A stretch of DNA of 41,094 bases from Promethearchaeota archaeon (GCA_030606095.1 JAUWHC010000001.1:1-41094); one strand, 5' to 3'. Positions 2,296 to 25,197 are shown, numbered from the stretch's first letter. The notes: generated by a model not told the origin, from the sequence alone. Program-made: numbers and translations.

Positions 2296-3231
2296 TTATA
2301 AGAATGTATCATCATTCTTCTTTAAGAAATCTAATAACTCCCTTTCTTTAGGCATACCAGATCTCGCACCTAAATTTTGGATCTTTAAAGAAGCTGCCGC
2401 ATTAGCGTATTTACAACTCTTTTCTAAATCCCAACCTTTAATCCAGTAAGCTAGAGAAAACGCACCATTGAATGTATCTCCTGCCCCCGTAGTATCAATA
2501 ATATTTTTAATATCGTAAGTTGGTATCCTTTTTTGAAAGTCAGTTGTGGTTATTAACGCTCCCTTATTTCCTAAAGTAATAATTACAATAGGTATCCCTT
2601 TTTTCACTAAAATATTAGCTGCTTTTTCAGGACTGTCGCTGTTCGTTATTGATTTTGCCCCTTCTTTATTTGGAATTAAAATATCAGCATTTAAAAGCAT
2701 ATTTTTTAAATTTTCCCAACCTCTTTGCGCAATTTGAGATTCTAAATCAATACTAATTTTAACGTTATTTCTTTTAGCAATTTCAATGGCTTTTTCAGTA
2801 ACTTCCTGATGAATCATTGTAGTATGTAATAGCTTAGATTCTGCTATAAAAGATTCATTTAAATCCTTGACATCAATTTTTGTTGTTTGCATGTGAGGAG
2901 ATTGAATTATTGACTTTTCCCCTTTAGCAATAAATATAAAATTAACAGGCGTTTTTTTATCTAGCTTCTTTACAATAAAAGTTGTGTCTACCTTTTCTTT
3001 AACGAAATCATCAACCAAGAAATCCCCATACGGATCCCCTCCAACAGCCCCTATAAATCCACACAACCCCCCCAATCTAGCTACTGCTACTAAATAATTA
3101 GCTGTAACACCGCCTGAAAAATAATTCTCGCTTACTGCATCAATTTTTTCATCCGGTCTTGGAAAATGTGGTATTTCGGCAACCCAATCTAAAACCACTT
3201 CGCCTAACCCAACAATATCAACATGTTTCAT
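2296..3231 (-). CDS. PfkB-family carbohydrate/nucleoside kinase (ribokinase-like)
   Basis: N-terminal GLGEVVLD, a GG dipeptide region, and the C-terminal PfkB signature DTTGAGDTFNGAF. Confidence 0.85.
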   Translation of the reverse strand: MKHVDIVGLGEVVLDWVAEIPHFPRPDEKIDAVSENYFSGGVTANYLVAVARLGGLCGFIGAVGGDPYGDFLVDDFVKEKVDTTFIVKKLDKKTPVNFIFIAKGEKSIIQSPHMQTTKIDVKDLNESFIAESKLLHTTMIHQEVTEKAIEIAKRNNVKISIDLESQIAQRGWENLKNMLLNADILIPNKEGAKSITNSDSPEKAANILVKKGIPIVIITLGNKGALITTTDFQKRIPTYDIKNIIDTTGAGDTFNGAFSLAYWIKGWDLEKSCKYANAAASLKIQNLGARSGMPKERELLDFLKKNDDTFL

Positions 3232-3320
3232 GTTTTCAATCTAAAAACTAATAATTATTAAGATAATTAATGAAATAGAAACAAAAATTAATAAAAAAGC
3301 TTTTTTGTATAAAATTTTAT

Positions 3321-5045
3321 TTAAGTCAAGATTTCCTTCATACTATTATCTAATTCTTCTTCCACATTGATATCCTTAAAATCTGAAGCAACTATTTCAT
3401 AGGAATCACTAAAATCATTAAATTTTACTGAACCTCTAATCATAATATCTCTTCCAACGATTTCAGCAGAGAATTTTTCTAATAATTTTTCATAATCTGG
3501 AGTATCTTTAACTTTTATAATTGTATCGGCCTTCTTTCCAATTAATTTTTCTGCTGCGTCTCCAATAAATGTAGCCCTAATTTTACCGCTTTCATCTTCT
3601 ACAAAATGACTAACAATCATTGTAAGTTTAGTATTACCTTTTTGGTCGCATTTACAATTATCAATTTTTCTTCTACAAGTAGTACAAGCTTCGTAGAAAT
3701 TGATTTTTTTTAATTCATTAGAAATAAATCCCTTTATTTCAAAAAACCCAGATGATTGTATCGAATTAATTTCAGTAAAATTTCTTGAAAAAGTTCGACG
3801 TTTTTCTTTTGATGGAGTTTCTGAGATTTTTAGATTGGGGATGTTTAAATCAATTTTTTCTATACTTGAGTCATTTTGAATTGTTGCCTCGATTTTTTGC
3901 CAATAATTACTGAATTTTAGCTCAACATTTTTCAATAAAATGCCATCCCCGTTTTTTAAAGACTTCGATAATTCATCTGCTTTTTCTCGCCAAGCATTAA
4001 CTCTTATTGTATCTGTATCATCGCTTACATTAAAACTTAATAAAGACACTTCATCTCCAGTTTTTAATGATATTTTTCTTAAATCATCTATAGTCATTAA
4101 AATTCCTTGAAACGATATATAACCCTTTTCTTTTTGAAGATTTTCGATCTTATCAATAAATTTTGCCTTTAAATTTATTTCTTTATCTTTTTTTGTAATA
4201 GTTGTTCGAGAAGTCGCATGTAAATCAATTGCATTTTGTGCATAGTTACTTTTTCTAGGGTTTACATTAGTAAGTGAAATAAAATCACCAACTTCAACAT
4301 CTTTTATTTTTTCAATATCATCGTTCCAAAAACTTATCCTAATTTGTCCTGTTGAATCTCTCACTTTTAAGGAAGCAACCCTACCACTTTGTCCATCTTT
4401 CTTAATAAATTCCTTTATCGGTAATTTATTCATTACTTTTCCTTCAGTTGATATAGATCCTAAATCATCATTGATATTCTGTATTTGTCTAAACTCGTCT
4501 TTAACTTTTTGATACTTTTTATAGTCAACATCCTCTGGCGCTAAAATTATTTTACTAAATCTTCCAACATGAATCTCTATTCCATCGAATCTTCCTTTTT
4601 TTGCATTGCCATTTAGAATTTTAACAATTTCATTTTTTTCAAAGCGCTCATCTTTAAAAATGCTCACTTGGTCATCCCATAAAACAATTCGGATATCGCC
4701 TGTATTATCATGCAACAAAAACGATCCTACATGTCCAGTTTCTCCGCTGCTTTTATTGAAACTATTAACATGAAATATATCCTTAATTCTACCGACTATA
4801 ACAATATTTTTCATATTTAATGTAATATCTGAGATATTTAACTCAATTTCATTCAAAAGTTCCTTATTTTCACTCGTCACATCTACTCCTAACTCTTTAG
4901 CGATTACAAACAAAGCTCCTTCGTCTGAGATTAAACCCTTAAGTTCTTCTTTTTTCTCTTCTACTAAGCTTTGAATATCAATTCTAGATAGACCAGTATC
5001 TTCAATAATTTTATTAATATATGCTTCCGTTTTCATTTCTTTCAC
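3321..5045 (-). CDS. Replication protein A large subunit (multi-OB-fold ssDNA-binding protein with zinc finger)
   Basis: The N-terminal helical domain (LISDEGALFVIAKELGV) is typical of archaeal RPA. There are repeated OB-like modules (GRIxxI...G.V..L...D.TG.IR...W). The last OB fold carries a CTTCRRKIDNCKC zinc motif. Confidence 0.8.
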   Translation of the reverse strand: MKEMKTEAYINKIIEDTGLSRIDIQSLVEEKKEELKGLISDEGALFVIAKELGVDVTSENKELLNEIELNISDITLNMKNIVIVGRIKDIFHVNSFNKSSGETGHVGSFLLHDNTGDIRIVLWDDQVSIFKDERFEKNEIVKILNGNAKKGRFDGIEIHVGRFSKIILAPEDVDYKKYQKVKDEFRQIQNINDDLGSISTEGKVMNKLPIKEFIKKDGQSGRVASLKVRDSTGQIRISFWNDDIEKIKDVEVGDFISLTNVNPRKSNYAQNAIDLHATSRTTITKKDKEINLKAKFIDKIENLQKEKGYISFQGILMTIDDLRKISLKTGDEVSLLSFNVSDDTDTIRVNAWREKADELSKSLKNGDGILLKNVELKFSNYWQKIEATIQNDSSIEKIDLNIPNLKISETPSKEKRRTFSRNFTEINSIQSSGFFEIKGFISNELKKINFYEACTTCRRKIDNCKCDQKGNTKLTMIVSHFVEDESGKIRATFIGDAAEKLIGKKADTIIKVKDTPDYEKLLEKFSAEIVGRDIMIRGSVKFNDFSDSYEIVASDFKDINVEEELDNSMKEILT

Positions 5046-9910: not shown

Positions 9911-10618
9911 ATGAATAAGAATATTGTAATAAAGATTGGGGGTTCTCTTTTATTTTCTGAAGGGAAAACGATAAATTCTAAAAAAATTACTGAATTTTGC
10001 AATGTAGTTAAAAACAAGAAAGAATACGATTCCATTGTTATTGTATGTGGAGGAGGAATAATAGCAAGGGAATACATTGATGTTATAAGAGATTTTACTC
10101 AGAATGAGGCTTTATGTGATTTGATTGGAATTGATATTTCGCGAATAAATTCTCGATTAATTATTTCCAATTTAAAAGAATTTGCTTACCCCCAAGTACC
10201 AAAATCAATTGAGGAGTTATCAATTGCTATTCTAACTCATAAAATTGTAGTAATGGGTGGTTTACAACCGGGCCAATCGACAACTTCCGTAGCTATCGAA
10301 GTTGCAGAATATATAAATGCAAACATCTTAATAATCCTCACAGATGTAGAAGGTATATTTGATAAAGATCCAAAACTCTTTAAAGATGCAAAATTGATAA
10401 AAAAACTTTCTTATAATAAATTACGAGATATAATTTTACATTCATCAGGAGATAAGCAAGCAGCTGCGGGAGAGTATAGGATTTTTGATGCTGTTTCTTT
10501 ACAAATATTAAAAAGAAGTAAAATTACAATAATGGTAATTTCAGGAAAAAAGTTAATTCAATTTAAAAATTTTTGGGATAATGAAAAAGAGATTATTGGT
10601 ACTACTATATCAAACTAA
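9911..10618 (+). CDS. pyrH: Uridylate (UMP) kinase, archaeal type
   Basis: IVIKIGGSLLF, VIVCGGGIIAREY, MGGLQPGQSTTSVA and LTDVEGIFDKDP are amino-acid-kinase-fold UMPK motifs. Confidence 0.85.
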   Translation: MNKNIVIKIGGSLLFSEGKTINSKKITEFCNVVKNKKEYDSIVIVCGGGIIAREYIDVIRDFTQNEALCDLIGIDISRINSRLIISNLKEFAYPQVPKSIEELSIAILTHKIVVMGGLQPGQSTTSVAIEVAEYINANILIILTDVEGIFDKDPKLFKDAKLIKKLSYNKLRDIILHSSGDKQAAAGEYRIFDAVSLQILKRSKITIMVISGKKLIQFKNFWDNEKEIIGTTISN

Positions 10619-10699
10619 GATTTTTTTATAATAAATTATTTTAATTTGCAACATTTTACTAACATAGTTCTAAACAGTTAATATGTAGATGAAATAAAA

Positions 10700-10933
10700 A
10701 TGTCTCAAGCTTCATGGAAAGACCAAATTAAAAAGAAATGGGGGCCACATAGTCATTGTCCAATATGCGGAAAGGCAATGCCAACGGATAAGCAGTTTTG
10801 CAGTCAAACTTGTCGAGATAATTATCATAACATTAATAAAAAGAAAAAGAAAAAAGGAAAGGTTCAAATGATTTTTATGTTCGGGATGATGGCGGTTCTT
10901 TTTGTATTTATGTTCGTTTTTGGAGGAATATAA
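10700..10933 (+). CDS. Small zinc-ribbon protein with a C-terminal transmembrane helix (DUF2116-like)
   Basis: HSHCPICGKAMPTDKQFCSQTCRDNY zinc ribbon, a Lys-rich linker and a hydrophobic tail MIFMFGMMAVLFVFMFVFGGI. Confidence 0.65.
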   Translation: MSQASWKDQIKKKWGPHSHCPICGKAMPTDKQFCSQTCRDNYHNINKKKKKKGKVQMIFMFGMMAVLFVFMFVFGGI

Positions 10934-11225: not shown

Positions 11226-11594
11226 TTATTTATCAGTACTATTAGAGATCTCATTTAACGCTTCATTTAAGAATAAGATCAGCGCTTTTGCGATCTCGCT
11301 TTCGTTTTCTACTGATTTCAAAAACAGTAATAATAATACTGGGGCATTAAGATAAGAAGTTGTCTTTTCAACAATAATTTTACTTAATAATTTTCTTTGG
11401 ACTCCGAATAACAGATGTGTAACTGATGACGCTTTCATTCCTTCAATTGTAGGGGGACTTCCTAAAGTTACATTTCCGATACCTCTGTTTTCTTGATCAG
11501 AGATAAGCAAGAGATAACTTTTTTGCAATTTAAAGAGCGATAAATAAATCTTAATCTTATCAATCTCTTTAGTTTTTTCGATTATGGGTTTCAT
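11226..11594 (-). CDS. Hypothetical protein (122 aa); weak pattern resemblance to proteasome assembly chaperone PAC4/PSMG4
   Basis: The ORF has a clean start. The pattern SYLLLISDQ..IGNVTLGSP...VTHLLFG...KIIVEKTTSYLNAPVLLLLFL resembles the strand/helix pattern of PSMG4 as I remember it. Unverified. Confidence 0.45.
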   Translation of the reverse strand: MKPIIEKTKEIDKIKIYLSLFKLQKSYLLLISDQENRGIGNVTLGSPPTIEGMKASSVTHLLFGVQRKLLSKIIVEKTTSYLNAPVLLLLFLKSVENESEIAKALILFLNEALNEISNSTDK

Positions 11595-12560: not shown

Positions 12561-12782
12561 ATGTATAGGTCTAAAGACAATTCTACTATTAAAAAGAATA
12601 ATGTGCTAACACGATGTTATAATTGCGATAGTGAATTAATTAACCCAAATCAAAAATATTGTGAAAATTGCAATGCAATTCTTAATCCTAACGATTTGAA
12701 GTGGAGAAATAGTTTTATTGCTTTTATCTGTCTATTATGTTTAATTCCCTTAATTATCGTAGTCGGTATTAATTTAATGTGA
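12561..12782 (+). CDS. Small zinc-ribbon membrane protein
   Basis: CYNCDSELINPNQKYCENCNAIL (CxxC-x12-CxxC) followed by a transmembrane helix FIAFICLLCLIPLIIVVGINL. Confidence 0.5.
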   Translation: MYRSKDNSTIKKNNVLTRCYNCDSELINPNQKYCENCNAILNPNDLKWRNSFIAFICLLCLIPLIIVVGINLM

Positions 12783-12791
12783 ATATAATTA

Positions 12792-13181
12792 CTAAGGAGA
12801 AAAAACAACATCTGAGATACGTTGCCGACGTATATCAAAATCATGATCAACATAAAGAGTGATACAATGTTGATCTTTGTTTTGAGGGTTTTTGTGAATA
12901 TAACTTATAGGAACAACAGGTAGCTTTGATTTTGATATAAAATTCTTTGGAATTGGCACGGGGATTATTTCTTTACACCGCTCACAATTAACTAAAACTA
13001 CTTTTATTTTTTCAGATTCAAGCTTTTTCATTTTAATAAGCAAGTCAGTAGAAAGACCCAGAGAATTAACTGTTAACTTTTTTGGTGCTTCAGGAACTAA
13101 GGGAATATCCATTTCTAAATCCTCATCTGTTCTATACACTGATTTTCCTTTTTCAAACTTTTTTTTTGGTTGTTTAACCAC
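12792..13181 (-). CDS. Hypothetical protein (129 aa) immediately downstream of the profilin-like gene
   Basis: GTG-initiated ORF with a Lys-rich N-terminus, CERC, and ISYIHKNPQNKDQHCITLYVDHDFDIRRQRI. No family recognised. Confidence 0.5.
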   Translation of the reverse strand: MVKQPKKKFEKGKSVYRTDEDLEMDIPLVPEAPKKLTVNSLGLSTDLLIKMKKLESEKIKVVLVNCERCKEIIPVPIPKNFISKSKLPVVPISYIHKNPQNKDQHCITLYVDHDFDIRRQRISDVVFSP

Positions 13182-13331
13182 TTTTCTTCGCTCGTTACTA
13201 TTTTAAGAATTTAGATTTTTGGAAGGTAATTTATTGGAGAGAGGTATTTGTCATTACTTTTTGAAGATTTTTGATTGTTATTGTTTTTTTTTGAGAAATT
13301 TCTAATAATATGACTATAATTAAAAGTCAAA

Positions 13332-13940
13332 TTATACTCCAAATATTTGCCTTAACTCGTTATATACTTTTGAAAGTTCGGATATGATATGGGCGTTATT
13401 TTGTTGAAGATAATAATTAATATATCCTGAAAGCCCCTCGCCATCTTTAATCCATTCTAAGAAAGACTGAATTTCCCCTTTTAATTGAGGATCTATATTT
13501 TTTCCTGCAACAGGCGCAGGGGTTACACTGCTTCCACTAAATTGTGCGTTACTATTCACATAAGCTTTTTTTGTACTTAACTCTGAAACTGCTCTTGCTG
13601 TATCCATCGTTGCCCCCATAGGTTCACCATCGGGTTCAAGGTATATTATTACTTTGTGTTCTTCATCTTTTGCTCCAATTATGTGTCCTTCGCCCCGAAT
13701 TGAAGTAGCCACCATCCTTTCTGATGTACATTGAAGCACAGAATATTTCACACCCGAAATCATGACAAACGGAGCGTTTAAGCTGCTCCAACTTGAACTA
13801 ACTTTACCAATATCAGGGCTAATGTCCCAGTTATCTGTTGAGTAAACAATGTTATTTCTTCCTTGAATTACAGCAGCAGCAATAATACTGGGATCTTTTT
13901 GCAATAAATTATAAATTACAGTTGCAGGATCAGTTGGCAT
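13332..13940 (-). CDS. Profilin-like protein with a ~75-aa C-terminal extension
   Basis: Residues ~1-125 follow the profilin pattern: IYNLLQKDPSIIAAAVIQGRNNIVYSTDNWDISPD..., ISGVKYSVLQCTSERMVATSIRGEGHIIGAKDEEHKVIIYLEPDGEPMGATMDTARAVSEL. Compare eukaryotic AAIxGxDGxxWAxS...GxKYxVIQ...GKKGxxG...KT...Y...G....V..L.DYL. Residues ~126-202 are an extra Ser/Pro linker plus a helical tail. Confidence 0.65.
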   Translation of the reverse strand: MPTDPATVIYNLLQKDPSIIAAAVIQGRNNIVYSTDNWDISPDIGKVSSSWSSLNAPFVMISGVKYSVLQCTSERMVATSIRGEGHIIGAKDEEHKVIIYLEPDGEPMGATMDTARAVSELSTKKAYVNSNAQFSGSSVTPAPVAGKNIDPQLKGEIQSFLEWIKDGEGLSGYINYYLQQNNAHIISELSKVYNELRQIFGV

Positions 13941-14047
13941 TTTTTCCTCAATTTTTTAGATTTATATATCCTAGTGAAGAATTAATAATAATATATTAGT
14001 ATAAATATAATTATAAAATTTTTATTAAAATGTTATGGGTTTGTATT

Positions 14048-14506
14048 TTATTTTTTTGATGCCCTTATATTAATTCTTCCAAACATAGGTTTTTCTTGAA
14101 ATTTATTCTTTTCAGATTTTAATTTATTCATATCGTTTTTAAATATTATTTTATTTTGAAAAAATAATTTATGTTTGGAATCATTTTTTTTTAGTTCATT
14201 TAGATGATCTTTTAAATATATTTCTTTCCTAAACAATTTCCCACACACTGGGCAACTGAAATATGGATCTTCCAAAAGACCTTTAGGTGCTTTAACAACA
14301 ACTGGAAAAATTTTTCTTTTATGTGATATTCCATTAAGATTCCGACAATAATGTCTTCGCAATTTTCCATAAGGTGGATACTCAAAAAAAATTTTGCTTC
14401 CATGAGTGCATTCCCAAAATAGCACATCTGCACCACATTTTCTGCAAGATGTCTTAAAAGATCGAAGATAACAATGTTTACCGTGACTTTTATAAAAATG
14501 TCGCAT
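14048..14506 (-). CDS. Zinc-finger protein (C2H2-like plus Cys/His-rich N-terminus), basic C-terminal tail
   Basis: CRKCGADVLFWECTHG...HYC and FSCPVCGKLFRKEIYLKDHLNELKKNDSKH, followed by a Lys-rich tail. Confidence 0.55.
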   Translation of the reverse strand: MRHFYKSHGKHCYLRSFKTSCRKCGADVLFWECTHGSKIFFEYPPYGKLRRHYCRNLNGISHKRKIFPVVVKAPKGLLEDPYFSCPVCGKLFRKEIYLKDHLNELKKNDSKHKLFFQNKIIFKNDMNKLKSEKNKFQEKPMFGRINIRASKK

Positions 14507-14675: not shown

Positions 14676-15605
14676 TTGGATCTTTCAATGCTTCAAAATA
14701 ATTTAAATTTATGCCCAGAATGTGGGAATACAAATCTGATTTCTGATAGCACCCGTGGTGAGATAATTTGCAATTTATGTGGTTTAGTTTTAAGCCAAAA
14801 AATCATTGATTCTGGTCCTGAATGGAGAGCTTTTTCTTCAGAAGAAGCCAATAAAAAAGTTAGAGTAGGAGCGCCAACAACTTTGACAATTCATGATAAA
14901 GGATTAAGTACTATGATTGGGTGGAAAAATAAAGACGCGTTCGGTAAATGTATCAGCCCAAAAATGAAAGCTGAAGTATATCGTTTAAGAAAATGGCATG
15001 TAAGAACGAGGACAAATAAATCAATAGATCGGAATTTAGCTTATGCTATGAACGAATTAGATCGCTTTTCTTCTCAATTGAATCTGTCCAAAGCTTTAAA
15101 AGAATCGGCTGCTCATATATACAGAAAAATGGCTCATAAAAATCTAATAAGAGGAAGATCTATTGAGGCAATGTTGATTGCTTCTATCTATCTATCATGC
15201 AGGTTGAATAATATTCCGAAAACTTTGGATGATTTTATCGAATTTGCCCTAGTTGATAAAAAAAAAATTGCTCGTTGTTATAGGTTAATTCTAATTGAAT
15301 TAAAAATAAATATTCAAGTTTCCTCTCCAATTAATTTTATCCCTAGATTCTGCGCTGAATTAAAACTTTCAGGAAGAACTCAGAATCGAGCAGCAGAGTT
15401 ATTAAAATTAGCAAAAAAATACCATATTACTGCTGGAAAAGCACCCACAGGCCTAGCGGGTGCTGCTTTATATGTAGCGGCGATACAAGAGGGAGAACGC
15501 CGGACTCAAAGAGAGATCTCATTAGCAGCAGGTGTAACTGAAGCTACTATACGGAACAGATATAAAGAACTTGTTAATCATATGAGATTTGAATTAAAAC
15601 CATAG
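14676..15605 (+). CDS. tfb: Transcription initiation factor B (TFIIB homologue)
   Basis: N-terminal zinc ribbon CPECGNTNLISDSTRGEIICNLCGLV, B-reader/linker GPEWRAF, and two cyclin-fold repeats (RGRSIEAMLIASIYLSCR; GKAPTGLAGAALYVA). The start is TTG at 14676 or ATG at 14688. Confidence 0.95.
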   Translation: MDLSMLQNNLNLCPECGNTNLISDSTRGEIICNLCGLVLSQKIIDSGPEWRAFSSEEANKKVRVGAPTTLTIHDKGLSTMIGWKNKDAFGKCISPKMKAEVYRLRKWHVRTRTNKSIDRNLAYAMNELDRFSSQLNLSKALKESAAHIYRKMAHKNLIRGRSIEAMLIASIYLSCRLNNIPKTLDDFIEFALVDKKKIARCYRLILIELKINIQVSSPINFIPRFCAELKLSGRTQNRAAELLKLAKKYHITAGKAPTGLAGAALYVAAIQEGERRTQREISLAAGVTEATIRNRYKELVNHMRFELKP

Positions 15606-15896: not shown

Positions 15897-16712
15897 TTAG
15901 ATGTATAATGACTTTTTCTTATCGTCCATATCAACAAATTGAAATGTACCGAGATCTTTTTCCAATTGGTCTTTTTTACTTTGAAGACTTTTTGTAATAT
16001 CTTCTATATTATCAAGGGAATATTTCTTTTTAATTGGTAACATAAAAGATTTCTTAAGCATTTCTAAGAGTGTTATTGAAGCTTTTAAATCGGTGATATC
16101 CTCATTAAGCATCGCAATATTATCCGTTTCTGCCAAAAGAACAATCCCGTCTATATCAAATCTCGCTTTTGCCAAAGTTGGGATTAACCCATTAGCACCA
16201 ATAATAACCCCTTTTTGGATCTTTTCACAGTTATTTTTTGATAAAAAATTATCTAACAGTTCTCGGTTAGTTGAACTTGCAAATATTTTTGGAATTTTTG
16301 AATCAATCTTGCGACTATTTACGGGATACGCCCCCAAAGCAATTATCAACTTAATTTTACATTGATATATTATCTCTGTAAGAAAATTTGAAATTCTATA
16401 TATGCCTTTAGGTGTTAAACTTTGCGCATCTGCTGTAATTAAAATAATATCTCTTTGATAACTTGGATCTTTCCAAAAAAGAATTTCTGCTTTAGGTGCT
16501 GATAATAGACTATCATCAACGATAGCTCCAGCGGGGTAATCATCAAATATAAAATCCATAAAATTTTGGGCATTTAATTGTCCAATTAAGGAATCTATAG
16601 CGAACTTTCCGACATCAGCGATACCTGGCATTCCTAAAATACAAATAGGGTCCTTAAATTCTTCTTCTTTAATATCATTATGTTTAATTATCCTTATCCC
16701 AGACTCAGTCAA
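15897..16712 (-). CDS. PAC2-family proteasome assembly chaperone (PbaA/PbaB-like)
   Basis: ILGMPGIADVGKFAIDSLI near the N-terminus and an overall length of ~270 aa are typical of the archaeal PAC2 family. Confidence 0.75.
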   Translation of the reverse strand: MTESGIRIIKHNDIKEEEFKDPICILGMPGIADVGKFAIDSLIGQLNAQNFMDFIFDDYPAGAIVDDSLLSAPKAEILFWKDPSYQRDIILITADAQSLTPKGIYRISNFLTEIIYQCKIKLIIALGAYPVNSRKIDSKIPKIFASSTNRELLDNFLSKNNCEKIQKGVIIGANGLIPTLAKARFDIDGIVLLAETDNIAMLNEDITDLKASITLLEMLKKSFMLPIKKKYSLDNIEDITKSLQSKKDQLEKDLGTFQFVDMDDKKKSLYI

Positions 16713-21237: not shown

Positions 21238-22344
21238 ATGGAATCTCTAATAAGAAATGCTCGAAAGAGAGAAGTAATCAGACCAACTCGTGAAAATTTT
21301 GGTTACGCTAATATTAAAATTGTTGGATGTGGAGGGGCTGGAAACAACACCATTAATAGGTTAATGAAAATAGGAATAAAAGGAGCAAAATGCGTAGCGG
21401 TAAATACAGATCTCCAACATTTAGAAAGCGTTGAGTCCCACATAAAACTGTTAATTGGTAAAGATTTAACGCGAGGTTTAGGTGCAGGTGGCAATCCAGA
21501 CATTGGTAGAGCAGCAGCAGAAGAATCACGTGAAGATTTAACAAAGATACTAAGAGAAGCTAATTTAGTCTTTATTACCTGTGGAGAAGGTGGGGGGACT
21601 GGGACTGGAAGCGCACCTATAGTAGCTGAAATAGCTAAACTTGAAGGAGCAATAGTTGTAGGCGTCGTCACATTACCATTTGATACTGAAATAGGACGAA
21701 TAGAAAAAGCTCAAATGGGACTTAATGAACTAAAGAAGTACGCGGATACACTAGTGGTAATCGATAATAATAGCCTTTTAGACATTGCTCCAGATTTACC
21801 GATCATAGAGGCGTTTAGCGTCGCCGATGAAGTTTTAGCAACTATGGTAAAGGGAATAACTGAAACAATTTCATTACCTTCACTAATTAATTTAGACTTT
21901 GCTGATGTTAGGACCATTTTAAGTACGGGAGGCGTAGCAATTGTAGGAGTGGGTGAGTCTGGTAATAAAGGTAACCGTGTAGAAGAGGCCATTGAAGACG
22001 CACTCAACTCACCATTACTAGATGTATCTATTGACGGCGCAAAGGGTGCTTTAATTCATATTTGTGGCGGAAACGATATGACTCTCGCAGAAGCAAATTC
22101 TGTAGCAAAGAAAATTTCTGAAAAAATGGATGTGAACAATGCGATGGTAATCTGGGGTGCCCGGGTAAACGATGAGTTCGACGGATATTTAAGAGTTATG
22201 CTCCTTATAACTGGAATTAAATCGCCACAGATTTTTGGACAAGATATATCACCCGTTCAATCATTTAATAACAAAAATATATCTAATAAAAAAATTGGTT
22301 TATCCAATGATATTTTTAACATCGGTGAACTTGCTTTTGATTAA
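21238..22344 (+). CDS. ftsZ: Cell division protein FtsZ
   Basis: GCGGAGNNTINRL, NTDLQHL, and the tubulin signature GGGTGTGSAPIVAEIAK. Confidence 0.95.
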   Translation: MESLIRNARKREVIRPTRENFGYANIKIVGCGGAGNNTINRLMKIGIKGAKCVAVNTDLQHLESVESHIKLLIGKDLTRGLGAGGNPDIGRAAAEESREDLTKILREANLVFITCGEGGGTGTGSAPIVAEIAKLEGAIVVGVVTLPFDTEIGRIEKAQMGLNELKKYADTLVVIDNNSLLDIAPDLPIIEAFSVADEVLATMVKGITETISLPSLINLDFADVRTILSTGGVAIVGVGESGNKGNRVEEAIEDALNSPLLDVSIDGAKGALIHICGGNDMTLAEANSVAKKISEKMDVNNAMVIWGARVNDEFDGYLRVMLLITGIKSPQIFGQDISPVQSFNNKNISNKKIGLSNDIFNIGELAFD

Positions 22345-22811: not shown

Positions 22812-23369
22812 TTAGAATTGAGGCTTATATAATTTTTTAAATTCTTCCTTCTTTTTATCGTTGTATTTATGTTCTAAAAACTTTAGTACCGTGTGATGAG
22901 GCATCCCACCCAATATCATACTTACTGCTTTTCTTGCGATTTGTAAATTATCATAATCGGAAATGATTGAGACTGTTTTTCCATAGACAGATACGTAGCT
23001 CTCGGCAAATCTTTCGATTGCTTTTCTCATTTCACCATTCCTACCAATAATTCTCCCCTTTAATCTTTTTATTTTCTTCTCAGATTTTCCTAATATTTTA
23101 TACAAATTAAAAACTTCTATGTCAAAAGTTTCGTCTAGAAGCTTCATAGCTTTAATAGGGTTAAATCCTCTGTTTATAGCATTAATTATTTTTTGAGCAA
23201 TAAAGATATTAAGGGGATTATAATTTGGGTGCTCTATAACAGGCCTCACTTCGCAATCTCCAGACTCACTGTCCAAATTAATCTTAACTCCCAATGACTC
23301 TTCAATTTCTCGTTTAGTTTCACCGTTTTTTCCAATTGTTACCGCAATTCTATTTTTTCCTATTTTCAT
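22812..23369 (-). CDS. KH-domain RNA-binding protein (Dim2/Pno1-like pre-rRNA processing factor)
   Basis: Two KH GxxG motifs (IGKNGETKREIE; IGRNGEMRKAIE). Sits downstream of Rio1 as in many archaea. Confidence 0.8.
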   Translation of the reverse strand: MKIGKNRIAVTIGKNGETKREIEESLGVKINLDSESGDCEVRPVIEHPNYNPLNIFIAQKIINAINRGFNPIKAMKLLDETFDIEVFNLYKILGKSEKKIKRLKGRIIGRNGEMRKAIERFAESYVSVYGKTVSIISDYDNLQIARKAVSMILGGMPHHTVLKFLEHKYNDKKKEEFKKLYKPQF

Positions 23370-23415
23370 AATTCTAATTTAACTTTAGTACCTTCAATAA
23401 TGAAAGTTTATTTTT

Positions 23416-24279
23416 TTATTTATCTAAATTTATAACTTCGTAATAAAAATCCTCTGGATTAGGAATTTCAACTCCGATTTTTTCAAAATAATTAAAAACA
23501 TTCTTAATATCTCTCACTAAATAAACTTCTGCTTTTGGATGAAATGTAGTGACTGCTTGTGAGATGTCAATTACAATTGGTTTTTGATTATGATATAAAA
23601 TATTAAATTCGGATAAATCACCATGAACTAAGTTTGCATTTTGATATAAGTTTTTAATAAAACCAAGAATTTCATTTAATAGTTTAATAGGTTCCTTTGG
23701 AAATTTTATATCTTTAAGTTTTGGTGCAGGAATTGATCCAAAACCAATATATTCCATAATTAAAATATTATTTTTTACATAGATTGGCTCAGGTACGCTC
23801 AAACCTGCTTTATAAGCCCTTTTAAGATTTTTAAACTCTTTACTTGCCCATAAAAATATAATTTTTGATATGTTATGTGGTATTTTTTTAAATCTAGGAT
23901 CTCCTATAATATAATTTCTCATCCATCTTGACGTATTACTATCAATCTTATAAATTTTTATCGCAACTTCGCGATTATCTTCACCGTAAGCAAGGTAAAC
24001 ATTTGCTTCCTTACCTGCAGAAATTATCCCTTCAATTCTGTTTAAACGGCCAATTTTTAATAATTTGTTTACTTGTAAATACATTCTTTCATCAAAAACA
24101 GAATCTACAGTGGCTCTTTTTTTAGTTTGATCAATTTTTTTAATTCTTATCGAATCAATCTTCTTTTTTTCTAAATCATCTAATCTTGTATTAAATTTTT
24201 TATTTAAAACATCATTTGAAACTTCTCTTTCAAGTTCTTCCTCATCTTTATCAATAAAATCATTGTTTTTTTCCTCCAC
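23416..24279 (-). CDS. RIO-type serine/threonine protein kinase (Rio1 family)
   Basis: ISAGKEANVY, VAIKIYK and LVHGDLSEFNIL catalytic loop, with an acidic/basic N-terminal extension. Confidence 0.9.
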   Translation of the reverse strand: MEEKNNDFIDKDEEELEREVSNDVLNKKFNTRLDDLEKKKIDSIRIKKIDQTKKRATVDSVFDERMYLQVNKLLKIGRLNRIEGIISAGKEANVYLAYGEDNREVAIKIYKIDSNTSRWMRNYIIGDPRFKKIPHNISKIIFLWASKEFKNLKRAYKAGLSVPEPIYVKNNILIMEYIGFGSIPAPKLKDIKFPKEPIKLLNEILGFIKNLYQNANLVHGDLSEFNILYHNQKPIVIDISQAVTTFHPKAEVYLVRDIKNVFNYFEKIGVEIPNPEDFYYEVINLDK

Positions 24280-25197
24280 TTAATCCCCCTCCATAATCCT
24301 TTTAAATGCTTTTTTATCATCAAAAAAAGAAAAGTTTTTTATAAGTTTAATATGGTTTTCATCTCTTAATAAAACCCTATTTTTGGTAATATTCTCCACA
24401 AAATATTTGGATTTGTTTATTAAAATATAGTCATTTTTTTTAATTGGTAAAAATTTTATAAGTGTTTTTAATCTATAGAGATTTCTTCCCTTTTGAGTAT
24501 CTCTCCCTACTAGCTTTTTTGTTCTTTTTAAAATAAAATTATATTTTGACTTTAAACGTGAAACGATGTGTTTCATTAACTCATTTGTACTTAAATACAA
24601 ATCCACACCAAGTTTTTGATCTTCCATTTTTGAAATATATTGTTTATCGTCTTTTTTAAAGATATTTTCTACAAAATAAAGGATATCATCCAAAACTTTA
24701 TTAATAATATCAAATTGATTCTCATTTTTTACCCGTAATTGAATAATTGATAAAAAATACATCCCCCCTCTTAAATTAGAACAATTTTTACATAATTCGT
24801 AATTTATTTTGACTTTTATCGTTTGTTGATGAGTAATTTTATGATCTTCCCTCAAAGTTCCTGTAATTGTAAGATCAAAAGAAGATAACAAATCTTTTTG
24901 AGTAAACATTAATTCTTCAAATGAGAATGAAAAGGTGATTAAATCTTGTTTTAAATAAGATTTTAATAAAAATCGAGATATTACCTCTTCTATAATTGGA
25001 AATAATTCATTTTCAGCAGGTTCAATCCATTCTTCTTTTTTTGAATATTTCCTGCAATCGGTGCACATTTTAAAACTGATACTTTTTGGCAATTCGAATA
25101 ATGGATTTTCTTTTAAAAAACAGTTAAGGCACATACCAAAATAAGGCGCGTTTTCTTCTAGAGCCGTTCCACATATTGCACAAAATCTATGAGGCAT
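24280..25197 (-). CDS. NMD3-family protein (60S export adaptor homologue)
   Basis: N-terminal double CxxC (FCAICG...CLNCF, CTDCRKY). Size and operon position next to Rio1 fit the family. Confidence 0.75.
   Translation of the reverse strand: MPHRFCAICGTALEENAPYFGMCLNCFLKENPLFELPKSISFKMCTDCRKYSKKEEWIEPAENELFPIIEEVISRFLLKSYLKQDLITFSFSFEELMFTQKDLLSSFDLTITGTLREDHKITHQQTIKVKINYELCKNCSNLRGGMYFLSIIQLRVKNENQFDIINKVLDDILYFVENIFKKDDKQYISKMEDQKLGVDLYLSTNELMKHIVSRLKSKYNFILKRTKKLVGRDTQKGRNLYRLKTLIKFLPIKKNDYILINKSKYFVENITKNRVLLRDENHIKLIKNFSFFDDKKAFKRIMEGD

Follow-up and report, generated by a model that had tools for sequence, protein, structure and literature searches.

Asgard archaea possess actin, profilins and gelsolins, and the coupling of GTPases to actin is a hallmark of eukaryotic cells. 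According to reports cited in PMC8410842 and PMC9433394, Loki and Odin profilins do not bind polyproline. The Asgard machinery that recruits profilin-actin to filament-assembly sites "has yet to be discovered" (PMC9433394). In a survey covering 256 Asgard profilins, the only extensions examined were N-terminal (PMC8410842). In the Loki two-domain gelsolins, a linker joins the core to a C-terminal Zn domain that is specific to Loki and is found on unrelated multi-domain proteins as well (PMC9433394). In cultured L. ossiferum two profilins are present, B35_Pro1 of 22.82 kDa and B35_Pro2 of 14.47 kDa (10.1101/2025.11.30.690169, Suppl. Table 2). Coimmunoprecipitation with Lokiactin enriched B35_Pro2 and did not significantly enrich B35_Pro1 (log2FC 0.31, p 0.17), and the level of B35_Pro1 in the proteome exceeded that of B35_Pro2 (10.1101/2025.11.30.690169).

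The window, by which we mean the whole stretch of 41,094 nt that was analysed, has a GC content of 31.2% and carries a mixture of archaeal and eukaryote-like housekeeping genes, encoding FtsZ, a KH/PNO1-like protein, RIO1, NMD3, ArsA/Get3 and eRF1 in addition to those described below (Table 1). It also encodes a protein with a predicted mass of 22.0 kDa and a pI of 5.05, which we term the long profilin. This is a widespread, unannotated Lokiarchaeial paralogue bearing an undescribed, strongly constrained and portable three-helix domain. MAGs containing its homologues are labelled Lokiarchaeota, Promethearchaeota or Lokiarchaeia and, given these labels and the set of housekeeping genes, we assign the protein as a profilin paralogue from a Lokiarchaeia-type Asgard archaeon. 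The peptide strings quoted in a first-pass annotation of this DNA were all found in the translated ORF.

Table 1. Features of the long-profilin gene and its surroundings, with coordinates counted from the first nucleotide of the window.
Feature	Coordinates	Strand	Basis and remarks
Long-profilin CDS	13332..13940	(-)	ORF listing; 202 aa, ATG start, TAA stop included; 670 homologues
Profilin domain, residues 1-124	13569..13940	(-)	Odin-type, without Loki loop; phmmer, Foldseek, AlphaFold2
Ser/Pro/Ala/Gly-rich disordered linker, residues 125-147	13500..13568	(-)	pLDDT <50
C-terminal three-helix module, residues 148-202	13335..13499	(-)	tblastn; AlphaFold2; alignment of 37 modules
GAGG, Shine-Dalgarno-like motif	13946..13949	(-)	5 nt 5' of long-profilin ATG; candidate, read by eye
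152-aa Cys/His-rich protein	14048..14506	(-)	Upstream neighbour; C2H2-type finger, zf-C2H2 E=7e-4, sub-threshold
129-aa protein, CxxC pair	12792..13181	(-)	Downstream neighbour; in 75/84 loci
73-aa protein	12561-12782	(+)	Zinc-ribbon-like CxxC...CxxC N-terminus, C-terminal hydrophobic helix; 58/84 loci
TFIIB	14676-15605		In window
PAC2-family protein	15897-16712	(-)	Proteasome assembly chaperone homologue; syntenic in 79/84 loci
PAC4-like protein (weak)	11226-11594	(-)	Proteasome assembly chaperone homologue; syntenic in 79/84 loci
FtsZ (Tubulin/FtsZ GTPase domain and FtsZ_C)	21238-22344	(+)	7 kb from profilin gene
KH-domain PNO1/KRR1-like protein, RIO1 kinase, NMD3	22812-25197	(-)	Adjacent, co-directional eukaryote-type ribosome-biogenesis genes

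Residues 1-124 constitute a genuine profilin. When compared with PDB sequences using phmmer, the best match of the core was to the Odin profilin 5zza_P, covering residues 19-121 (E=2.8e-12), and there were further matches to Thor 7pbh (1.2e-9) and to Loki 5yed (8.3e-8) and 5zzb (2.6e-7). The Pfam profilin model PF00235 gave 19.1 bits, below the cut-off of 25 (E=0.0015), and a precomputed PF00235 match is present in just 2 of the 240 homologues listed. We attribute the sub-threshold score to a low sensitivity of the Pfam model for this Asgard clade and do not consider it evidence against homology.

The full-length protein was also modelled with AlphaFold2. A shallow alignment of 50 homologues, 73-100% identical, produced a pLDDT of only 46.7, but the low score was cured by using a diverse alignment, which yielded a mean pLDDT of 82.5 and a pTM of 0.60, with pLDDT >90 across residues 1-120. 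Helices were modelled in the core at residues 5-15 (N-terminal), 41-52 (central) and 107-121 (C-terminal) and strands at 19-26, 30-34, 58-61, 64-71, 75-79, 86-91 and 95-101. Thus, the N-terminal helix, the antiparallel β-sheet, the three-strand motif that replaces half of the central helix and the C-terminal helix of the profilin fold are all found. In a Foldseek search of the PDB, Odin profilin 5zza_P ranked first (E=4.6e-11, TM 0.91, rmsd 1.2 Å) and ranks 1-49 were occupied exclusively by profilins from Odin, Loki, Thor and Heimdall archaea and from eukaryotes. The best roadblock structure, 9jue_E, appeared at rank 50 (E=3.8e-4, TM 0.66), and Robl_LC7 was absent from the Pfam matches of the protein. 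A roadblock/LC7 identity of the N-terminal domain is therefore ruled out, and the profilin fold that the first-pass annotation had read into the first ~125 residues is borne out by both the sequence and the structure searches.

Residues 58-91 correspond to the three-strand motif that is described as the actin-contacting element of profilin (PMC10933270). Identity to Odin profilin is highest in this region (16/34), and it contains most of the invariant residues of the family, V64, K65, Y66, S67, L69, Q70 and C71 together with T72, E74, R75, V77, A78, T79 and S80. Profilin identity and the conservation of the three-strand region suggest that the core may bind actin monomers. A different role would follow if the profilin-fold domain were a GTPase-associated adaptor, similar to roadblock or longin domains, which the module connects to Ras-like GTPases. 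The core fold is indeed common to profilin, roadblock and longin (PMC10933270), related profilin domains are fused to Ras GTPases (P0302, P0304 and the L086 ORF 2335-3327), and the presumed L. ossiferum orthologue, for which orthology is based on mass only, was not significantly enriched with Lokiactin. Nevertheless, we consider an adaptor of this kind very unlikely because the structural match to profilin is far better than that to roadblock, the profilin-specific three-strand motif is not only present but better conserved than the rest of the core, and Odin profilin, the nearest relative with a solved structure, was crystallised with actin (5ZZA).

Beyond the core, an extra C-terminal domain of ~75 residues had been proposed at the outset. 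The extension is real, but it is not a single domain, consisting instead of a disordered linker of ~23 aa and a folded module of 55 aa. The linker has evolved almost neutrally, with a pN/pS of 0.83 (against 83 orthologues) and a mean column identity of 0.554, and in relatives it ranges from ~23 to ~150 aa, some linkers being Lys-rich and others Pro-rich. The module, on the other hand, is under stronger constraint than any other part of the protein, with a pN/pS of 0.11 versus 0.27 for the core (83 orthologues) and a mean column identity of 0.932 versus 0.875. It is modelled as three helices at residues 151-165, 170-179 and 183-200 (pLDDT 78-88), and the periodicity of its hydrophobic residues is consistent with a small helical bundle. 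The consensus is xIDPxLKxEIxxFLxWIKDPxGLxxYIxYYLQQNDxxxISxLxxIYxxLRxIFxx, in which W163, G169 and Y193 are invariant among 37 diverse modules that were aligned. The module is acidic (pI 4.75) and contains no cysteine.

With the full-length protein as query, 670 database proteins were matched at E<=1e-3; the top 120 have lengths of 188-204 aa and show 73-100% identity at 100% query coverage. A second search, seeded with a subfamily of 211 aa, gave 667 matches. All of the named homologues are annotated as 'hypothetical protein'. For the genomic context, one genome per species was scanned with 11 close module sequences as query, yielding 112 module-encoding places, 80 of which were combined with four metagenome loci to give a set of 84 loci. 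In 82 of the 84 loci, one ORF of 199-216 aa encodes both profilin and module. That a frameshift in sequencing or assembly might have joined a separate small gene to the profilin, or that the ORF was mis-called, has a probability which we regard as practically nil; the single ORF recurs in loci of different species and in hundreds of metagenomic proteins, and the reading frame is common to the orthologues and carries a signature of selection at the codon level. The possibility of a frameshift, which had been raised earlier as an objection, is thereby excluded.

The gene order is also strongly conserved, and 75-80 of the 84 loci share the arrangement PAC2 / TFIIB(-) / 152-aa Cys-His-rich protein / long profilin / small CxxC protein / ... 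/ PAC4-like protein, in which the PAC2 and PAC4-like genes bracket the profilin neighbourhood. In a distant lineage with a GC content of 59.5% and a TFIIB 57% identical in sequence, profilin and module are still present (39% identity) and the order is TFIIB(-) / Zn protein (39% identity) / profilin and module / a 77-aa homologue of the downstream gene / DeoC. Since this lineage maintains the arrangement, both the fusion and its two same-strand neighbours must be old. Several near-identical and fully syntenic loci carry discordant taxon labels (L023, L035, L048, L058, L066, L067 and L024; P0032 and P0287), including Hermod-, Hod-, Thor-, Odin- and Heimdallarchaeota as well as 'Nanopelagicaceae bacterium'. 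As TFIIB in the sampled loci is 86-98% identical to that of the window, the labels probably cannot be relied on or reflect mis-binning.

The first-pass annotation had described the long profilin as being flanked by two small zinc-binding proteins. For the upstream neighbour this is supported by a sub-threshold C2H2 match, whereas the downstream neighbour shows a CxxC pair and yielded no Pfam or NCBIfam match. The upstream protein, found in 78 of the 84 loci, carries one C2H2-type finger and a basic tail; its gene is transcribed in divergence from that of TFIIB and still adjoins that of the long profilin in the GC-rich lineage (E=2e-23). The 77-aa protein which follows the profilin gene in that lineage matches the 129-aa neighbour's C-terminal half (E=3e-8) and, as only this half is retained there, the N-terminus of the downstream gene appears dispensable. 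In close relatives the downstream gene encodes 152 aa (L001), and in the corresponding region of the window (12792-13331, (-)) small indels have placed in-frame stops among the first ~23 codons, so that the remaining ORF starts with GTG and encodes 129 aa. A paralogous domain of this neighbour occurs in a 389-aa protein (L087, 9031-10200), and the gene for the 73-aa protein lies between the downstream neighbour and DeoC on the opposite strand. The association of the long profilin with its two same-strand neighbours is suggested by synteny only.

When 1.84 billion representative proteins were searched exhaustively with the tail using phmmer, 53 matches were obtained, 45 of which were judged to be true. 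The remaining eight were to giant adhesin-like proteins (1.4-7.8 kaa with 2-10 module 'copies') which we consider non-homologous. They reflect a chance resemblance of DGEGLSGYINYYLQQNN to DADGLSGxINYQWQRNG of β-rich adhesin repeats, and in these DUF4347/cadherin/LamG proteins each matching stretch scored <17 bits, the totals being sums over repeats. The true matches fall into three groups: proteins with the profilin-linker-module architecture and linkers from 23 to ~150 aa, short sequences many of which resemble fragments of such proteins, and mosaic proteins. One of the long-linker variants, P0159 (301 aa with a Lys-rich linker of 140 aa), is encoded at locus L088, where a gene for a two-domain gelsolin (10547-10906) is located ~4.6 kb downstream of the profilin and module gene.

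Mosaic architectures were characterised by one extra search seeded with a mosaic and by local domain mapping. In most of them the module is attached to Ras-family GTPases, in the orders Ras-polyproline-Zn ribbon-module (P0129, P0299 and P0300), Ras-[profilin C-helix and linker]-module-polyproline-Zn (P0301 and P0303) and Ras-module-gelsolin (P0133), and P0130 is a further module-bearing Ras-family GTPase. The others are WD40-like-polyproline-Zn-module (P0306), a module following a Zn ribbon (P0122) and coiled coil-module-polyproline-profilin-Zn (P0126 and L086), in the last of which the module is N-terminal to the profilin. Two sister proteins, P0302 and P0304, lack the module and are arranged as Ras-polyproline-profilin core-Zn, with a core close to that of the long profilin; no description of Ras-profilin fusions was found in the literature searched. 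At locus L086 the ORFs at 2335-3327 and 3251-4231, which belong to these Lokiarchaeial mosaics of Ras, polyproline and profilin core, overlap by 77 nt and possibly represent one frameshifted gene. A C-terminal unit of the form '(Y)PYPYIFxPPxPPDD...(20-30 aa)...CQYCGxKLTxEEQxTHSCKKKP' recurs in P0126, P0130, P0301-P0306 and L081:1017-1775, and it is probably the Loki-specific 'Zn domain' of the two-domain gelsolins (PMC9433394). The Zn domain and the three-helix module co-occur, as separate units, in mosaic Ras proteins. All these non-profilin architectures are rare, amounting to about 10 clusters as against hundreds of canonical profilin-module clusters.

The genome CAZBPC01 contains both the canonical gene (L032) and a Ras fusion (L081/P0123) from which profilin residues ~74-136 have been deleted; the profilin remnant has decayed and the module is 83% identical. 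Because four independent contigs, the longest of 76.6 kb, carry the fusion gene, it is not an assembly chimera. Maintenance of the module where the profilin core has been lost implies that it functions independently of the core, and the module is a portable, autonomous domain.

These architectures bear on an earlier suggestion that the tail either occludes or regulates a profilin surface or else tethers the protein. As the module is found without profilin, the tether is favoured and occlusion is not. An intramolecular regulator would fold back on the core and mask or tune its actin- or phosphoinositide-binding surface, the autoinhibition being released by a signal. A small domain on a flexible tether is the classic layout for such a mechanism, a pTM of 0.60 is compatible with a fold-back contact, and the terminal extension of Heimdall and Thor profilins modulates binding to polyproline and PIP2 (PMC8410842). 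We nevertheless judge autoinhibition to be quite unlikely because the module survives on profilin-less proteins and after deletion of the core, and because it occurs on either side of the profilin, preceding it in P0126 with a polyproline tract between. Moreover, the length of the linker differs about six-fold among relatives, and the module is conserved more strongly than the core that it would supposedly regulate.

The module is an orphan domain family that is undescribed in the literature reached. It matched nothing in Pfam or among PDB sequences, whether the search was made with one sequence or with a profile, the best profile match in the PDB having an E-value of 0.079 with nothing coherent among the matches. 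The weak Pfam matches of the 37 modules (E<=10) include no recurrent family, and the full-length protein has no NCBIfam match. In a literature search that was not exhaustive, so that an earlier mention is possible, no C-terminal extension or domain on Asgard profilins was found. An EF-hand reading of 'KDGEGLSGY' was dismissed by inspecting the conservation within the family, and a WH2 reading of 'LSKV' was rejected on inspection of the alignment, in which no LKKT/V-type motif occurs in an extended segment.

In villin, a flexible linker leads to the headpiece, a compact helical domain with which the protein ends, and both the '(V/I)DP' start and the terminal position of the module prompted a comparison with the villin and dematin headpieces. 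Homology was rejected on the basis of an hhalign probability of 0.4%, and VHP was not detected even among the weak Pfam matches of the 37 modules (E<=10). A functional resemblance can still be envisaged, in which the module would bind F- or G-actin like a headpiece and provide a second actin-binding site, so that the protein would act as a bivalent deliverer of monomers on filaments, a bundler or a nucleator. The villin-like order of actin-binding core, linker and terminal helical domain would accord with this, as would the position of the module beside a gelsolin repeat in P0133 and the conservation of the family alongside genomes bearing Lokiactin. Apart from the failed headpiece comparisons, such a role is opposed by the location of the sole L-S-K-V/I of the module, which is buried within predicted helix 3 where L189 is a conserved core position, by the acidity of the module, and by its non-profilin carriers, which are mostly GTPases with no evident need of an F-actin anchor. 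We regard a second actin-binding site as decidedly unlikely.

The reading that we prefer, and in which we have about even confidence, is that the long profilin consists of a profilin core tethered by a flexible linker to a docking or assembly domain which binds a shared partner or hub. The module would bind either a conserved partner or its own counterparts on other proteins, and this would concentrate profilin, and profilin-actin, at one defined site. The covalent tether would then replace the role that polyproline tracts of formin and VASP have for eukaryotic profilin, a fitting comparison, given the reported failure of Loki- and Odin-type profilins to bind polyproline. Both the docking role of the module and the nature of its partner are inferred. 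Since Ras-family GTPases and a GTPase-gelsolin fusion also carry the module, the shared site may couple GTPase signalling to actin regulators. More specifically, although we consider it unlikely, a homotypic or hub-binding module might couple Ras-family GTPases, gelsolin-domain proteins and profilin at a GTPase-controlled site of actin assembly in Lokiarchaeia; as part of the same doubtful proposal, the long-profilin gene would have been the donor for the mosaic family that combines Ras, polyproline and profilin or module. The non-profilin architectures could also be by-products of lineage-specific domain shuffling rather than a sign of a common hub.

The cultured organism provides a possible link to protein data. 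Members of the 211-aa subfamily have masses of 22.7-23.2 kDa, and the window protein has a mass of 22.05 kDa. B35_Pro1 (UYP46361.1) is therefore probably the L. ossiferum orthologue of the long profilin, as judged by mass only, and its name was not found among the database matches. If it is the orthologue, its lack of significant enrichment with Lokiactin speaks against the preferred reading.

The analysis defines an orphan domain family and allows hundreds of 'hypothetical proteins' to be recognised as profilins. As the long profilin is conserved across Lokiarchaeia, its 55-residue module constitutes a possible bait for the missing hub of actin assembly. The occurrence of the module on Ras-like GTPases and on a GTPase-gelsolin protein, together with the Ras-polyproline-profilin sister proteins, raises the possibility that GTPase-actin coupling may pre-exist in these archaea in another molecular form. 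If true, the proposal of a GTPase-controlled site of actin assembly would imply a pre-eukaryotic wiring of small-GTPase signalling to actin polymerisation that is independent of formin and WASP.

Among known systems, the closest to residues 1-124 are Odin profilin (5ZZA chain P) and Loki profilin-1 and profilin-2 (5YED, 5YEE and 5ZZB), with which they share both fold and sequence homology. Like Odin profilin, the long profilin lacks the long Loki loop, which is apparent in the alignment with 5yed as extra residues in Loki profilin-1. The solved Asgard profilins are 119-136 aa in length and end at the C-terminal helix, whereas the long profilin continues with the linker and the module. Heimdall and Thor profilins (6YRR and 7PBH; PMC8410842) likewise have a terminal appendage, for which a regulatory role was proposed, but their extensions are N-terminal, 5-25 aa in length and disordered, occur in ~5% of 256 profilins and apparently arose independently (PMC8410842). 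By contrast, the long profilin has its appendage at the C-terminus, in the form of a folded, strongly conserved and portable domain that nearly all members of the lineage possess. Trypanosomatid profilin (PMC10907219) has likewise gained a helical element that the canonical fold lacks, but this is an internal insertion making a WH2-like actin contact, whereas the element of the long profilin is a separate terminal domain without WH2. The headpieces of villin and dematin resemble the module in size class, helical content and terminal position, with no detectable sequence relationship. The Loki two-domain gelsolins, which come from the same organisms, follow the same design as the long profilin, in that the core of an actin regulator is joined by a variable linker to a small, lineage-specific terminal domain. 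Although the gelsolins end in a zinc-binding (CxxC)2 domain and the profilin module is all-helical and without Cys/His ligands, the gelsolin architecture is, by analogy, a direct precedent for the core-linker-module design of the long profilin.
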